Positions 4,258 to 34,063 of a stretch of DNA of 50,261 bases are shown here, piece by piece (the stretch's first letter is position 1; each line of letters begins with the position of its first letter). The translations under genes and the position numbers were made by a program. The stretch lies in assembly GCA_001002415.1 (NCBI GenBank), contig LCMB01000002.1:3434-53694 (forward strand), given 5' to 3'. Origin of the DNA: Microgenomates group bacterium GW2011_GWF2_46_18 (GTDB lineage Bacteria; Patescibacteriota; Microgenomatia; UBA1400; UBA12108). Below the pieces are notes generated by a model. That model did not search any database. It saw only the letters and a program-made list of their open reading frames with translations, and was not told the DNA's origin.

Positions 4258-4998
4258 CTAGTGCTGCTTGATAAATTTGCTAATTATGTAGTTAAATTCT
4301 ACCTCATTTTCTAGGTTTACCATGTGGCCAGAGTTACCAATGTACTCTAGATTAGAGTTGATAATTTTGTCGGCCAGAGTATCTGCTATGGTGTGATAGT
4401 AATCGAGGTCCTTGTCGCCAACCAGGATTTGTGTGGGTAATTTGATCTCACCTAGCCTATCAATGGCGGGCGGGATTAGTTTTATCCATGGATCATGGTT
4501 GAGCCAGTGCCAGCCAGAATAATCGGACACCATTTGCTTAAGTCTTGAGAAAATCTTTGGATTAGATTTGACTGAGTCAAACACGGGATGATTTAGCCAG
4601 TTCTCCTTGGCTTTTTCTAATCCCTGCTCTTTGGCGTAGACTTGCCAGTTGACTGAGCTGGCATAGCCACCAAGGGATGAGTCTGCGAGTGTCAAGGTTA
4701 GGACTGTATCTGGGTTGGTAAGGACATAGTCGAGAGCAACTTCTCCCCCTAGCGAAAGTCCAACTAAGTGAAATTTGGAGAGATTTAGGCTTGTGACAAG
4801 GTCGTGAAGATTGTCATGGTGAGTATATGGCCCTGTAGGTAGTGGTGATTTGCCAAAGCCACGCATGTCGTAGGTAATGACTTGGTTGGTTTTGCTAAGG
4901 ATCTCTACTTGAGGGTCCCACATTCGTGAGTCAAGGGAAAAGCCGTGAACGAAGATGATTGGTACACCCTCGCCTTTTGATTGAAAATACAAGTCCAT
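4258..4998 (-). CDS. Alpha/beta hydrolase fold protein
   Basis: HGFSLDSRMW oxyanion region, nucleophile elbow GLSLGG and a C-terminal GH motif. Confidence 0.7.
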   Translation of the reverse strand: MDLYFQSKGEGVPIIFVHGFSLDSRMWDPQVEILSKTNQVITYDMRGFGKSPLPTGPYTHHDNLHDLVTSLNLSKFHLVGLSLGGEVALDYVLTNPDTVLTLTLADSSLGGYASSVNWQVYAKEQGLEKAKENWLNHPVFDSVKSNPKIFSRLKQMVSDYSGWHWLNHDPWIKLIPPAIDRLGEIKLPTQILVGDKDLDYYHTIADTLADKIINSNLEYIGNSGHMVNLENEVEFNYIISKFIKQH

Positions 4999-5022
4999 CA
5001 GCTAATTGTATCAGGATATTGA

Positions 5023-5046
5023 CTATATCAAACTATATCATTGGGT
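5023..5046. repeat. 24-bp perfect direct repeat, distal copy (ctatatcaaactatatcattgggt)
   Basis: Identical to 6043..6066. It contains an internal tandem ctatatca-aa-ctatatca. It lies 24 nt upstream of the 4258..4998 start codon. Confidence 0.9.
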
Positions 5047-5088
5047 CAGCTAGTGGACTCATTCGTGAACAAGAAAATTGAGATCGGT

Positions 5089-6013: not shown

Positions 6014-6042
6014 CTATAGAGTATACACTAAAAATCCTATGT

Positions 6043-6066
6043 CTATATCAAACTATATCATTGGGT
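6043..6066. repeat. 24-bp perfect direct repeat, tRNA-proximal copy
   Basis: Identical to 5023..5046. It overlaps the last 3 nt of tRNA-His and forms its 3' trailer. It lies 29 nt upstream of the APH start codon. Confidence 0.9.
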
Positions 6067-6138
6067 GGGTGAGCGGATTTGAACCGCCTGCCTCATCCTC
6101 CACAGGGACGCGCTCTAACCAAATGAGCTACACCCACC
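6064..6138 (-). tRNA. tRNA-His (GTG)
   Basis: Manual cloverleaf. Encoded G-1 plus acceptor GTGGGTG/CACCCAC and discriminator C. D arm GCTCATTTGGTTAGAGC. Anticodon loop CTGTGGA. T loop TTCAAAT. No encoded CCA. Confidence 0.9.
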
Positions 6139-6153
6139 ACGGTGCACATGCGT

Positions 6154-6159
6154 ATTATA
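6154..6159 (-). promoter_or_regulatory. -10 box TATAAT for tRNA-His
   Basis: RC of attata. Lies 15 nt upstream of G-1. The same TATAATAC context is seen at 6305..6310 and 7825..7832. Confidence 0.5.
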
Positions 6160-6176
6160 ACTCAAAAATAGATATG

Positions 6177-6291
6177 AAAACTCGCTTTACCTGCCTATAG
6201 GCAGGTCTAACCAAATGAGGGCTCCCAGATTACTGCGTATCTGGAGCCATTTCTCAAGTGCCTATGGCACTTGATGTGTACTCCACCCACC
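6177..6291 (-). ncRNA. Candidate chimeric small RNA / pseudo-tRNA: tRNA-His 5' end + twin-hairpin element + tRNA-His D-arm + terminal hairpin
   Basis: Has its own TATAAT box (6305..6310). 15 nt are identical to the tRNA-His leader plus 5' acceptor (6284..6298 vs 6131..6145). 14 nt are identical to the D arm (6206..6219 vs 6114..6127). Hairpins at 6254..6274, 6220..6248 and 6189..6206, then a T-run. No GTG anticodon loop, no T arm and no 3' acceptor strand. Confidence 0.45.
6220..6274 (-). other. Twin-hairpin element, copy 1
   Basis: Gapless 41/55 identity to 33928..33982, with four compensatory base-pair substitutions in the two stems. Confidence 0.7.
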
Positions 6292-6304: not shown

Positions 6305-6310
6305 ATTATA
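6305..6310 (-). promoter_or_regulatory. -10 box TATAAT for the tRNA-His-like chimeric RNA
   Basis: RC of attata. Lies 13 nt upstream of the GGTGGGTG start and immediately after the stop of the 6311..6457 ORF. Confidence 0.45.
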
Positions 6311-7710: not shown

Positions 7711-7796
7711 TGGTGCCGAGGGCGGGGATCGAACCCGCATGAGATTACTCTCACAAGTTTTTAAGACTTGAGCGTATACCATTCCGCCACCTCGGC
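7711..7796 (-). tRNA. tRNA-Leu (TAA), long variable arm, CCA encoded
   Basis: Acceptor GCCGAGG/CCTCGGC, anticodon loop CTTAAAA, T loop TTCGATC, 3' ACCA. Confidence 0.9.
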
Positions 7797-7805
7797 ATAG
7801 GCAAA

Positions 7806-7811
7806 ATTATA
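7806..7811 (-). promoter_or_regulatory. -10 box TATAAT for tRNA-Leu
   Basis: RC of attata. Lies 9 nt upstream of the tRNA 5' end and is divergent from the tRNA-Arg promoter. Confidence 0.45.
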
Positions 7812-7821
7812 CAACAAGCCC

Positions 7822-7830
7822 TGGTATAAT
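7822..7830 (+). promoter_or_regulatory. Extended -10 TGgTATAAT for the tRNA-Arg-Pro-Gly cluster
   Basis: tggtataat lies 9 nt upstream of the tRNA-Arg 5' end. Confidence 0.55.
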
Positions 7831-7839
7831 ACTCATAGC

Positions 7840-7913
7840 GCTCCAGTAGCTCAGTTGGATAGAGCACTTGCCTTCTAAGCAGGGGGTCGGAGGTTCGATT
7901 CCTCCCTGGGGCA
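7840..7913 (+). tRNA. tRNA-Arg (TCT)
   Basis: Acceptor GCTCCAG/CTGGGGC, anticodon loop CTTCTAA, T loop TTCGATT. Confidence 0.9.
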
Positions 7914-7919
7914 CTGAGT

Positions 7920-7992
7920 CGGGGTGTGGCTCAGATGGTAAAGCGCCTCGTTTGGGACGAGGAGATCCCCAGTTCGAGTCTGGGCACCCCGA
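7920..7992 (+). tRNA. tRNA-Pro (TGG)
   Basis: Acceptor CGGGGTG/CACCCCG, anticodon stem CCTCG/CGAGG with loop TTTGGGA, T loop TTCGAGT. Confidence 0.9.
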
Positions 7993-8026
7993 CAAGAGTA
8001 AGTGCGCGTGTTAAAATACGCTAGTT

Positions 8027-8100
8027 GCGGGTATAGTTCACCGGTAGAATGCGTCCTTGCCAAGGACGAGAAGGCGGTCCGATTCCGCTTACCCGCTCCA
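8027..8100 (+). tRNA. tRNA-Gly (GCC), CCA encoded
   Basis: Acceptor GCGGGTA/TACCCGC, anticodon loop TTGCCAA, T loop TCCGATT, 3' TCCA. Confidence 0.9.
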
Positions 8101-18919: not shown

Positions 18920-18944
18920 CCCTACGGGGTTACACCCTGAAGGT
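18920..18944 (+). repeat. REP-like repeat copy 1 (5' flank and leader of the transposase gene)
   Basis: Exact 25-mer shared with 19626..19650. It can form ACCCC-TAC-GGGGT and ACC-CTGAA-GGT mini-hairpins. Confidence 0.9.
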
Positions 18945-19625
18945 ATGCCTGCAAAAAATATTGTTAAACAGTATGTGGAAGGTGGATATTACCACGTTTA
19001 CAACCGTGGAGTAGAGAAGAGGGAAATATTTTTAGATGAGGAAGATTATAAGAAGTTTATCGGATACTTAAAACTATATTTATCTTCCCCTACCCTACAG
19101 GGTTCAACCCTGAAGGATGAGTTTAATAGAACCATACCTCCATCACGTGCTTTAAATAATTTTTCTCAGGAAATAGAACTTGTTGCGTATTGTTTGATGC
19201 CTAATCATTTTCATTTATTACTTAAGCAGATTACGCAGCGTGGAATGGCGAGTTTTATGCAGTCTTTATTTACAAAGTACGTGATGTATTTTAATCGCAA
19301 GTACCATCGCGTTGGCGCCTTGTTCCAAGGCACATATAAAACAGTTAAGGTCGATAGTGAGGAACAACTTAAGTATTTAAGTAAATATATTCATAGAAAT
19401 CCTTTGCCGGAAAGACCTACAAGGTTACACCTTGAAGGCTTAAAGGATTATAAATACTCAAGCTACGGTAATTATCTTGGCTTGTTTAAACAGCCGTGGA
19501 TTAAACCTGCTGATGTGTTATACAGCTTTTCGAGAACCAATGATTTTTTGAGCTATAAATCGTTTGTAGAGGAGACTGGAGATGTGGAAATAATTTACAA
19601 TGAGATGATTGATTTGGATTACTGA
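18945..19625 (+). CDS. IS200-like / REP-associated tyrosine transposase (Y1 HUH family)
   Basis: YHVYNRG, HUH motif MPNHFHLLL, FQGTYK, and catalytic Tyr context YIHRNP followed by YKYSSY. Confidence 0.8.
   Translation: MPAKNIVKQYVEGGYYHVYNRGVEKREIFLDEEDYKKFIGYLKLYLSSPTLQGSTLKDEFNRTIPPSRALNNFSQEIELVAYCLMPNHFHLLLKQITQRGMASFMQSLFTKYVMYFNRKYHRVGALFQGTYKTVKVDSEEQLKYLSKYIHRNPLPERPTRLHLEGLKDYKYSSYGNYLGLFKQPWIKPADVLYSFSRTNDFLSYKSFVEETGDVEIIYNEMIDLDY
19093..19116 (+). repeat. REP-like repeat copy 2, inside the transposase CDS
   Basis: ccctacagggttcaaccctgaagg is 21/24 identical to copy 1. It encodes ..TLQGSTLK.. in a loop between conserved motifs. Confidence 0.8.
19416..19438 (+). repeat. REP-like repeat copy 3, inside the transposase CDS
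   Basis: cctacaaggttacaccttgaagg is 20/23 identical to copy 1. It encodes PTRLHLEG just after YIHRNP, in a different frame from copy 2. Confidence 0.8.
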
Positions 19626-19650
19626 CCCTACGGGGTTACACCCTGAAGGT
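19626..19650 (+). repeat. REP-like repeat copy 4 (3' flank)
   Basis: Exact 25-mer, followed by the partial echo ctaaggtgc. Confidence 0.9.
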
Positions 19651-33803: not shown

Positions 33804-33841
33804 AAGAAACTATGTATCAATTTTGGCCATTGAAACTGTTG

Positions 33842-33916
33842 TGACCCCATTGGGATTCGAACCCAAGTTAACAGGATGAAAACCTGTCGTCCTAGACCGG
33901 GCTAGACGATGGGGCC
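33842..33916 (-). tRNA. tRNA-Glu (TTC)
   Basis: Acceptor GGCCCCA/TGGGGTC, D arm TCTAGCCCGGTCTAGGA, anticodon loop TTTTCAT, T loop TTCGAAT. Confidence 0.9.
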
Positions 33917-33927
33917 AAAATTATTTG

Positions 33928-33982
33928 GCATCCCAGATCACTACGTGTCTGGATGCACTTCTCATGTTTCTACGAAACTTGA
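33928..33982 (-). other. Twin-hairpin element, copy 2 (fills the tRNA-Lys/tRNA-Glu spacer)
   Basis: Gapless 41/55 identity to 6220..6274. Hairpins at 33928..33956 and 33962..33982. Compensatory changes keep both stems intact. Confidence 0.7.
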
Positions 33983-33988
33983 AGTGCG

Positions 33989-34063
33989 TGGGCCCACTGG
34001 GATTCGGACCCAGGACACCCTGCTTAAAAGGCAGGTGCTCTAACCAGACTGAGCTATAGGCCC
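33989..34063 (-). tRNA. tRNA-Lys (TTT)
   Basis: Acceptor GGGCCTA/TGGGCCC, anticodon loop CTTTTAA, T loop TCCGAAT. Confidence 0.9.

Follow-up and report, generated by a model that had tools for sequence, protein, structure and literature searches.

Introduction

Among the described repeats close in kind to the element considered here are the Rickettsia palindromic elements (RPE), reportedly introduced by Ogata and co-workers in 2000 and said to be hairpin repeats of 100–150 bp that occur in one genus and lie in frame in protein genes. The present element is a unit of about 61 nt with two hairpins, found twice in a stretch of 50,261 nucleotides from Microgenomates group bacterium GW2011_GWF2_46_18 (contig LCMB01000002.1, positions 3,434 to 53,694; the whole stretch is called the window). 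It is real and, as far as we have searched, undescribed. Its copies are gained or lost at orthologous sites, they are sense-oriented in transcribed DNA, and their two hairpins are kept by compensation. We give about even chances to the interpretation that it is a dispersed, strand-specific, self-folding insertion-derived repeat of Patescibacteria, tolerated in discarded segments of pre-tRNAs.

Like RPE, the element is a short hairpin repeat of reduced, host-dependent bacteria, it is found both in protein genes and in RNA genes or their flanks, it has no known transposase, and it is old and diverged. Unlike RPE, it measures ~61 nt instead of 100–150 bp, it extends over many class-level lineages of the candidate phyla radiation (CPR) and one TM6 genome instead of one genus, and its copies are overwhelmingly linked to tRNAs, strictly in the sense orientation and nearly always intact in structure. 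No sequence match of the element is present in the annotated collections searched, and a literature search did not return a description of it.

The ERIC/IRU and REP/BIME repeats of enterobacteria are imperfect palindromes in transcribed regions, and the repetitive extragenic palindromes (REP) are mobilised as single-stranded hairpins by Y1 transposases. With these the element shares the imperfect palindromes, the transcribed surroundings and the cross-species conservation with compensatory changes, and a Y1 gene is present in the window. It differs from REP/BIME in that it lacks GTAG, has two unlike hairpins, forms no REPIN-like doublets and has an apparently low copy number. Structured RNAs in a tRNA-type processing context are also known, namely mascRNA at the 3′ end of MALAT1 and mitochondrial tRNA punctuation. 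By analogy, the element may be a short structured RNA at a place where cuts by RNase P or RNase Z would release an RNA. Unlike for mascRNA, no cloverleaf was found, the tRNA and mascRNA models are unmatched at the element, and the processing is putative here.

Fragments of tRNA genes mark the attachment sites of integrative elements, according to one preprint (bioRxiv 10.1101/2022.07.05.498093). Compared with the sites as presented there, the element is similar in that direct repeats of the tRNA 3′ end (nt ~61–73) flank the insert downstream of an intact tRNA. However, the ‘island’ here is only ~125 nt long and has no integrase, the element also occurs with 5′-end duplications (inside the D arm), and the structured core is the same whatever the tRNA. 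The strict link to tRNA genes, the tRNA-fragment flanks and the cross-phylum range are unusual for small structured repeats.

The two copies and their homologues

An earlier note on this DNA, made from the letters alone, had reported an ungapped match of positions 6220–6274 to 33928–33982 with 41 of 55 positions identical (75%), which stands on the sequence. In a binomial estimate with the base composition of the window, 8e-5 pairs as similar as the two copies are expected per window, counting either orientation. The copies differ at 14 of the 55 positions, and eight of these 14 form the four compensatory pairs that had been pointed out, each of them right on base-by-base re-reading: 6221–6247 G–C vs 33929–33955 C–G, 6222–6246 C–G vs 33930–33954 A–T, 6260–6268 G–C vs 33968–33976 T–A, and 6261–6267 C–G vs 33969–33975 T–A. 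The element is read on the minus strand, because the adjoining genes for tRNA-His, tRNA-Lys and tRNA-Glu are all on this strand. Where ~55 nt had been given previously, the unit measures 61 nt and has a conserved 5′ GCAC(A/U) tail and a 3′ C. The two copies and their parts are:

6219..6279, minus: element copy 1, 61 nt, 5′ ACACA–hairpin A–GAAAU–hairpin B–C, 81.5 bits with model R1
6254..6274, minus: hairpin A of copy 1, 9 bp with an AUA triloop, variable in sequence across the family
6220..6248, minus: hairpin B of copy 1, sequence-conserved irregular 12-bp helix with two bulges and an apical triloop
33927..33987, minus: element copy 2, 61 nt, fills the tRNA-Lys/tRNA-Glu spacer, GAGAAGUG linker variant, 80.3 bits with model R1
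33962..33982, minus: hairpin A of copy 2, with one A·A mismatch (sense; T·T on plus) at the conserved A of the family
33928..33956, minus: hairpin B of copy 2

Both copies fold clearly better than dinucleotide shuffles as RNA and as DNA, on either strand. For the sense strand, the z values are −6.3 (copy 1) and −3.6 (copy 2) as RNA, and −7.0 and −4.6 with DNA parameters.

For the homology search, the bases common to both copies were combined into the pattern GAGAA-N5-TCCAGA-N9-ATCTGGGA, which was run on three collections. It is important to point out that the pattern fixes 19 bases (GAGAA, TCCAGA and ATCTGGGA), so that their invariance is by construction and the diversity and range of the family are underestimated. 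The GTDB species-representative genomes contain 51 pattern matches, with ~4 expected by chance, and 35 of the 51 are related beyond the pattern, with 5′ GCAC(A/U)UC, a variable hairpin and complementary dinucleotides around the core. The metagenome collection yields 92 pattern stretches and 76 model matches. Zero copies were found in the scan of the viral collection and in a BLAST search of phage and plasmid records. In all, there are 96 distinct element sequences, with a unit length of ~55–63 nt. A model built from metagenome copies only (R2) has exactly two matches in the window, at 6219–6279 and 33927–33987 on the minus strand, with 77.9 bits (E 2e-19) for copy 1 and 77.2 bits for copy 2.

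Judged by record title, the hosts are Woesebacteria, Pacebacteria/Paceibacterota, Microgenomates, Saccharibacteria, ‘Patescibacteria group’ and Cerribacteria. Outside Patescibacteria, one complete TM6 genome (CP011212) carries the element. Several small metagenome-assembled genomes (MAGs) among the carriers are titled ‘Pseudomonadales’; for one of them (L010; loci are given L numbers here) the label looks wrong, because it is syntenic with the window. Clustering of the open reading frames (ORFs) in 33 loci revealed no recurrent neighbour gene, the commonest neighbour being present in 6 of 33.

Consensus structure

RNAalifold on 36 sequences returns two hairpins. In the genome set together with the window, 97.3% of the cells are paired and 11 of the 19 pairs are changed on both sides; the corresponding values for the metagenome set are 96.7% and 12 of 19. 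The two sets are largely separate, with few loci recurring in both. On four of five measures, none of 500 column shuffles reaches the observed value in either set, and on the fifth, 8 of 500 do so in the metagenome set. Sliding the partners by 1–3 columns reduces the pairing to 21–46%. The proposal of a selected single-strand fold, as opposed to a passive duplication, is thus upheld: some 100 homologues elsewhere keep both stems by compensatory change. A search with a covariance model had been recommended for this purpose, with absent homologues, broken stems or a match to Rfam or to a REP/MITE class named as the outcomes that would speak against it (MITE, miniature inverted-repeat transposable element). 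Homologues exist in other genomes and metagenomes, their stems are intact, and no such match was obtained.

In the sense direction, the element consists of a 5′ G-C-A-C-(A/U) tail, hairpin A, the linker G-A-A-A-U, hairpin B and a final C. Hairpin A has the consensus U-C-R-A-G...C-N-Y-G-A, with 4–9 bp of free sequence and a conserved A facing a variable base, and it covaries at 5 of the 7 modelled pairs. Its loop is a C-GNA-G triloop in 52 of 93 cases; C-GNA-G is the classic stable mini-hairpin loop of DNA. A 9-bp stem with a 3-nt loop had been assigned to this hairpin in both copies, which is right for copy 1, while copy 2 has one mismatch. Hairpin B, previously drawn with a 9-bp stem, one bulge and a 10-nt loop, had to be revised. 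It is an irregular helix of 12 bp in which an A and a G are bulged and whose apex is C-GAA-G, and part of the former loop is helical, because covariation adds three pairs that close a C-GNA-G triloop and leave the bulged A. Its sequence is conserved and covaries at the base and near the apex. The unpaired bases C2, A3, C4, U6, C7, U31 and G32 are invariant independently of the search pattern.

Two further pairings were considered. A pseudoknot of the 5′ CAC(U)UC with the apical GAAGUG of hairpin B lacks support, since its positions either do not vary or do so with no compensation. An alternative helix, CACNUC/GANNUG, is without compensatory support and is the minimum-energy fold in copy 2 only.

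The mismatch types give an ambiguous answer as to the strand, as does the stability of the sense and antisense folds. In hairpin A, 9 G·U vs 3 A·C favour the sense RNA strand. Over the whole structure, there are 25 G·U vs 32 A·C, and the antisense strand folds slightly better on average.

Genomic contexts

The surroundings of the two window copies comprise the following features:

6063..6138, minus: tRNA-His(GTG), functional, with encoded G-1 (6063–6137 in ARAGORN and Rfam)
6154..6159, minus: TATAAT box before the real tRNA-His, with leader GCACCGTG (seen in the sequence)
6190..6205, minus: hairpin CCTGCC-TATA-GGCAGG (read from the sequence; compare L043, L010, L066)
6206..6219, minus: copy of tRNA-His nt 11–24 (CTCATTTGGTTAGA), immediately 3′ of the element, in direct repeat with the real D arm
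6280..6291, minus: 5′ fragment of a pseudo-tRNA-His (G-1, acceptor strand GTGGGTG, GAG, T), abuts the 5′ end of the element
6305..6310, minus: TATAAT box with TG upstream (TGATATAAT), precedes the pseudo-fragment and the element (seen in the sequence)
33841–33916, minus: tRNA-Glu(TTC), 10 nt downstream of copy 2 (ARAGORN, Rfam)
33988–34063, minus: tRNA-Lys(TTT), directly upstream of copy 2 (ARAGORN, Rfam)

Both copies had been placed inside minus-strand tRNA transcription units. This is correct for copy 2, which fills a spacer, but it does not simply apply to copy 1, which lies within a decayed duplicate of tRNA-His. The order there is TGATATAAT, GCACCGTG, G-1 GTGGGTG GAG, element, CTCATTTGGTTAGA, the 6190..6205 hairpin, a second TATAAT, GCACCGTG and tRNA-His. 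That is, the leader of the real tRNA-His is duplicated upstream of the pseudo-fragment, and the element interrupts a promoter-bearing duplicate of the 5′ part of the tRNA, upstream of the real gene. The pseudo-fragment equals the real 5′ end except for U8>G, and the layout is shared with L010 and L043. The hairpin at 6190..6205 is, to judge from its sequence, probably the degenerate anticodon arm of the pseudo-tRNA. A two-hexamer scan finds no full sigma-70 site ahead of the pseudo-fragment.

Exact protein matches assign the window to CPR assemblies from groundwater of the Rifle aquifer (GCA_001002205.1, GCA_003508865.1, ANAN16 scaffolds). In the strain-level contigs examined, both intergenic regions are 100% identical in nearly all cases, the exceptions being L154 and L004. 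L154, a 3.5-kb metagenome contig, is missing exactly 92 nt between the two CTCATTTGGTTAGA repeats (window 6127–6218); the tRNA-His that remains is full-length but split by the element between nt 10 and 11, and an intact copy is absent from the locus. The variant could be a real recombination, a dead variant or an assembly artefact. L004 (GCA_001002205.1) lacks 94 nt (window 33841–33934), a loss that takes in all of tRNA-Glu, the spacer and the final 8 nt of copy 2. The junction, GTGATCT|AACAGTT, has no microhomology, and other assemblies of the same population are intact.

Across the family, all copies with a tRNA within ~200 nt are on the same strand as the tRNA, except for one fragment (L089), and five classes of context can be distinguished. 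In class (a), the element directly follows the tRNA and its first base is the discriminator base. The tRNAs are all four tRNA-Ser isoacceptors, Arg(CCG) and, nearly, the Lys of the window; the copies carry the linker variant GAGAAGUG, like window copy 2. L089 belongs here, the adjoining tRNA-Ser fragment being inverted. The seven tRNA genes of the window (6063–6137, 7711–8100, 33841–34063) all have 3′ trailers that start with C. CCA is encoded by Leu(TAA) and Gly(GCC), and the other five are without it (CAA, CGC, CAA, CUG, CAA). The element itself starts with G-CAC, which looks like a discriminator base followed by such a C-initial tRNA trailer.

In class (b), which includes window copy 1, the element is upstream of a tRNA and embedded in a partial copy of it. 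One finds tRNA nt 1 to 10–12 (often with leader and promoter), then the element and nt 11–13 to 22–27, after which come a degenerate remainder or short filler and then the intact gene. The tRNAs are His, Gly, Thr, Lys, Val, Ala, Asp, Arg and Ile. The tRNA-His arrangement is also found in the syntenic L010 and L043, and L066 retains more of the pseudo-tRNA. The duplicated acceptor strand tracks the real one between genomes, with GGTGGGTG vs GGTGAGTG for His and three variants for Gly. At L034 (~1200–1320 of the minus-oriented stretch), a tRNA-Pro is preceded by its own first ~21 nt and then a ~80-nt insert with a different hairpin (CCTCGATATGAAATATCGAGG) and a D-loop-like end, TTTGGTAGAGC. Because of this duplicate, partial 5′ duplication of tRNAs is not confined to the present element.

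In class (c), the element is downstream of tRNA-Leu, -Gln or -Tyr, in the order long variable hairpin, conserved hairpin GACUU-GA-ACC-GUA-GGU-GA-AAGUC (hairpin C), element, and a copy of the last 11–13 nt of the tRNA. This 3′-end copy shares on average 8.4 nt with its own tRNA vs 4.2 for cross pairs. One contig (L027/L042) carries the unit together with a truncated second copy, the two being identical over 64 nt that take in the 3′ part of the element and the tRNA-Leu end. Hairpin C is found 25–30 nt upstream of the element after tRNA-Leu/tRNA-Gln (L007, L017, L023, L024, L027, L035, L044, L046 and others). Its outer stem covaries, and it is preceded by a 15–18-bp hairpin of free sequence directly after the tRNA. 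The 5′ half is complementary to the T loop/T stem, by up to 11 nt with its own tRNA; the complementarity to the own T arm is only weakly above cross-pair controls (6.7 vs 5.3). The idea that hairpin C of the Leu/Gln-linked copies is a decayed 5′ fragment of tRNA-His was tried and is not significant.

In class (d), whole units are repeated in tandem, with a period of 56, 118 or 137 nt. In class (e), the element is located in six or more unrelated real ORFs, always sense and in frame. The length of these copies is 60 or 63 nt; most of those linked to a tRNA measure 55, 56, 59 or 61 nt. Among the hosts are a CAP-domain protein of 303 aa (L056; a homologous ORF at L070 also has a copy), proteins of 707 and 2521 aa and several others, and the copies encode LHIESDSSREMTPDAxQSGSP in proline/threonine-rich linkers. 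Among the 120 listed homologues of the L056 CAP protein, none of the 32 aligned (83–65% identical) carries the 20-aa insert. In the homologous giant proteins of L071 and L111, the element is at different positions.

Gain and loss are also seen at tRNA loci. The cluster Leu(TAA) / Arg(TCT)-Pro-Gly(GCC) of the window (7711–8100) has no element, and the orthologous cluster of L034 has element units in the Arg and Gly leaders, behind the same CCCTGGTATAAT promoter. In L052/L094, an empty spacer of 12 nt separates Lys from Glu; in the window this spacer measures 71 nt and is filled by the element. Truncated, degenerate or tandem copies are present at L042, L012, L039, L047, L018, L032 and L059. The nearest-neighbour element shares the tRNA context in 21 of 58 cases vs 4.8 expected. 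After tRNA-Leu(GAG), hairpin A steps from UCCC/GGGA to UUCU/GGGA to UUCC/GGAA via G·U intermediates. Because of the context clustering, the stepwise compensation and the 75% identity of the window copies, the family is judged to be old and mostly inherited with the locus, gain or loss being only occasional.

Comparison with known element classes

With the Rfam gathering threshold, the window and 18 loci match only tRNA, tmRNA and small-subunit rRNA models. The statement of the earlier note that the element is absent from known RNA families holds in Rfam 15 up to E ≤ 10, where for both copies and two related loci only anti-hemB (12 bits, E 3.3) overlaps it. As to RNase P, the flank GGUGAAAGUCU upstream of some copies resembles CR-I; no model matches, and the unit is far too small. 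The models of self-cleaving ribozymes (hammerhead, hairpin, twister, pistol and hatchet) are unmatched, and no CUGANGA...GAAA core is seen by eye. That the element is not an intrinsic terminator had also been stated correctly: the terminator scan is blank at either copy, and hairpin B is followed by C and then by tRNA-derived or other sequence.

The family consensus, GCACAUC...GAGAAAUG...CC, has no conserved GTAG, and its two hairpins are different, unlike a REP, which is an imperfect palindrome of 20–40 nt with a conserved GTAG at one end. Contrary to a REP/RAYT arrangement, unrelated hairpins of 23–25 nt stand on both sides of the Y1_Tnp genes in the window and in L033. The window gene is an ORF of 226 aa at 18945–19625 (plus) with a Pfam match to Y1_Tnp (IS200/RAYT-like, E 5e-10) and HUH and YIHRNP motifs. 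Identical 25-nt hairpins (CCCTACGGGGTTACACCCTGAAGGT) stand before its ATG (18920–18944) and after its stop (19626–19650), and two diverged copies of this hairpin lie in frame within the ORF (19093–19117, 19415–19439). A 52%-identical homologue at L033 (7245–7904) has the same layout, with a different hairpin that contains GTAGG.

For a MITE, terminal inverted repeats would be expected, and the 5′ (T-C-Y)GCAC and 3′ GGGANNCC are not inverted copies; nor do ORF and spacer copies have a flanking direct repeat of the target-site type. The tRNA-fragment repeats vary from ~10 to >40 nt, with the element inside one repeat copy. In the integron attC class, R″/L″–L′/R′ boxes with GTTRRRY ends are absent from the consensus, the bulged hairpin bases being the sole resemblance. 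The candidates of a CRISPR, TIGR or type III antitoxin array were also rejected: L047 and L018 repeat the whole 56-nt unit identically, with no unique spacers and no adjacent toxin gene. As regards a tRNA intron, an interrupted full-length tRNA-His exists in L154 only, and elsewhere an intact copy is present alongside. What the element does show is a trait of RPE-type repeats, in-frame insertion in unrelated ORFs with orthologues that have no insert.

Possible origin and role

The dispersed copies, the presence or absence at given sites, the independent in-frame insertions in ORFs and the lack of a companion gene point to an insertion-derived repeat of RPE/ERIC type. Given the dispersed gain and loss, the ORF copies and the tRNA-fragment flanks, a selfish or insertion origin is no less likely than a dedicated small RNA. 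In such a scenario, copies would have landed where extra sequence is harmless: in those parts of pre-tRNAs (5′ leaders, spacers, 3′ trailers) that would be discarded through the action of RNase P and the enzymes of 3′ processing, in redundant, decaying tRNA duplicates, and in disordered protein linkers if the length is a multiple of three. A resident copy would then be inherited together with its tRNA locus. Selection would keep the element self-folded, possibly because it then does not mispair with the adjacent tRNA, and this would account for the compensatory changes. Copy 2 would be removed as the Lys-Glu spacer, and the TATAAT box of copy 1 would drive its transcription within a dead pseudo-tRNA-His.

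Several observations weigh against the insertion-derived repeat. A transposase, terminal inverted repeats and a target-site duplication of the element were not found. The copies within one genome are diverged (75% in the window) and the sub-families follow the tRNA identity across genomes, so that there is no sign of recent activity. The fold is intact in nearly every copy, and hairpin B and the unpaired GCAC and GAAAU are nearly invariant across the classes; such conservation exceeds the needs of an inert passenger and fits a specific partner, the invariance being partly imposed by the pattern. The stepwise change of hairpin A after tRNA-Leu(GAG) implies selection in place, and the tRNA fragments that flank the element show no divergence from the real tRNA next to them, even as the remainder of the pseudo-tRNA decays. 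Since the insertion scenario leaves the movement itself, the conservation of hairpin B and the unpaired bases, and the identity of the tRNA flanks unexplained, a functional reading stays alive, and we hold it possible, with odds clearly short of even, that the element serves tRNA transcription units as a functional RNA module, either a cis element for processing, stability or folding or a released small RNA. The single-stranded GAGAAAUG linker between two stable hairpins could be an endonuclease entry site, or hairpin B (12 bp plus 3′ NCC) could mimic an acceptor/T minihelix handled by RNase P, RNase Z or the CCA-adding enzyme. The minihelix would serve as punctuation in organisms with a reduced RNase set, and the ORF copies would be secondary strays. 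The strict sense orientation with tRNAs speaks for such a role, as do the strong covariation with invariant unpaired bases beyond the search pattern, the 9 G·U vs 3 A·C of hairpin A, the compensatory change in one orthologous context with context-specific lineages, and the TATAAT box that copy 1 has of its own. The same can be said of the tRNA-His and tRNA-Gly upstream arrangements, conserved in syntenic genomes, and of the four tRNA-Ser isoacceptors, where the element starts exactly at the discriminator base. However, orthologous tRNAs manage without the element, it is equally well preserved within unrelated protein-coding genes, and tandem identical units and truncated copies occur. Moreover, G·U (25) is not above A·C (32) in the whole structure, for which antisense folds slightly better, and the C-GNA-G triloops that dominate (52 of 93 in hairpin A) are also the classic stable mini-hairpin loop of DNA.

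In another reading, which we consider improbable, the hairpins act as single-stranded DNA, as a REP/PATE-like substrate of a Y1 (HUH) transposase of IS200/RAYT type. Insertion into transiently single-stranded DNA, for example the strand displaced at heavily transcribed tRNA genes or the template of the lagging strand, would explain the tRNA bias and the fixed orientation. The imperfect hairpins with extrahelical bases, the lack of terminal inverted repeats and target duplication, the dominant triloops, the balance of G·U and A·C together with a fold that is as significant with DNA parameters, and a 5′ flank biased to T-C-Y are all consistent with it, and Y1_Tnp genes are found in the window (18945–19625) and, as a homologue, 2.6 kb from the element in L033. 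Yet these two are the only cases of a nearby Y1 gene in ~110 loci, and both genes carry their own unrelated 23–25-nt hairpins. There is also no GTAG-type tetranucleotide, hairpin A is unlike hairpin B whereas the ends of IS200/IS605 elements resemble each other, and the genome copies are old and diverged. Also improbable, and perhaps slightly more so, is a tRNA-addressed RNA module, in which the two-hairpin scaffold carries the flanking tRNA copies (nt 1–12 + 13–24, or 61–73), which change along with that tRNA from genome to genome, as an address; it could pair or compete with the complementary half of the cognate (pre-)tRNA and thereby control or aid maturation. The extreme version of this, an excisable intervening sequence of bacterial tRNA genes, is hinted at by L154. 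Taken by itself, a removable intervening sequence within a functional tRNA gene (D arm, nt 10–13) is very unlikely. The deletion in L154 does leave an element-interrupted full-length tRNA-His with no intact copy at the locus, but it is 1 of 50 contigs read with these SLT alleles (24 + 14 + 12) and may be an artefact or a dead variant. All other D-arm copies are in truncated pseudo-tRNAs beside an intact gene, a bulge-helix-bulge geometry is not seen by eye, and the unit is far too small for a group I/II intron. Chance similarity or a recent passive duplication within the genome would fit the presence of two copies in the window and nothing more; with the expectation of 8e-5, ~78 bits for both copies from an independent model and eight of the 14 differences compensatory, this is already refuted and its probability practically negligible.

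Patescibacteria make up a large share of bacterial diversity, and their non-coding sequence is almost uncharted. The element is widespread and structured, with ~100 examples and strong covariation, and it is absent from Rfam and from the literature searched. A selfish element would be an invader of tRNA loci and protein linkers in the manner of RPE, shared across phylum-level lineages, and would point to a spread among ultra-small symbionts that is either old or horizontal. A functional one would mark a new step in the handling of tRNA transcripts under a reduced RNase repertoire. In practical terms, the element yields pseudo-tRNA fragments and spurious small ORFs that may lead to annotation errors, and surface proteins gain from it a recognisable peptide of 20 residues (LHIESDSSREMTPDAxQSGSP).

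Further observations

Three loci (L009, L018 and L037) have a ~100-nt conserved stretch ending in CGGAGAGCGGTTCAAAATAAGAATCGTCCTCCGCAC upstream of the element unit, where other loci have the tRNA. It is recognised neither by ARAGORN nor by Rfam (E ≤ 1).

At six loci, a tRNA gene starts directly at the end of a co-oriented ORF of ~210–235 aa, which has an N-terminal helix-turn-helix (HTH) and the motif LAGLYLGDGF:

L009, 4220–4924: HTH/LAGLYLGDGF ORF
L044, 4330–5034: HTH/LAGLYLGDGF ORF
L028, 1355–2053: HTH/LAGLYLGDGF ORF
L012, 4434–5123: HTH/LAGLYLGDGF ORF
L032, 2145–2765: HTH/LAGLYLGDGF ORF
L022, 2428–3051: HTH/LAGLYLGDGF ORF

Pfam assigns this LAGLIDADG-like ORF to HTH families only, and a LAGLIDADG endonuclease is its candidate identity.

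Finally, the window contains a direct repeat of 38 nt, 84% identical, at 5020–5057 and 6040–6077 with the core TATATCAAACTATATCATTGGGT. The latter copy is just downstream of tRNA-His and upstream of an APH-like gene, the former is upstream of a hydrolase gene (4258–4998), and the repeat may be a shared promoter or operator.

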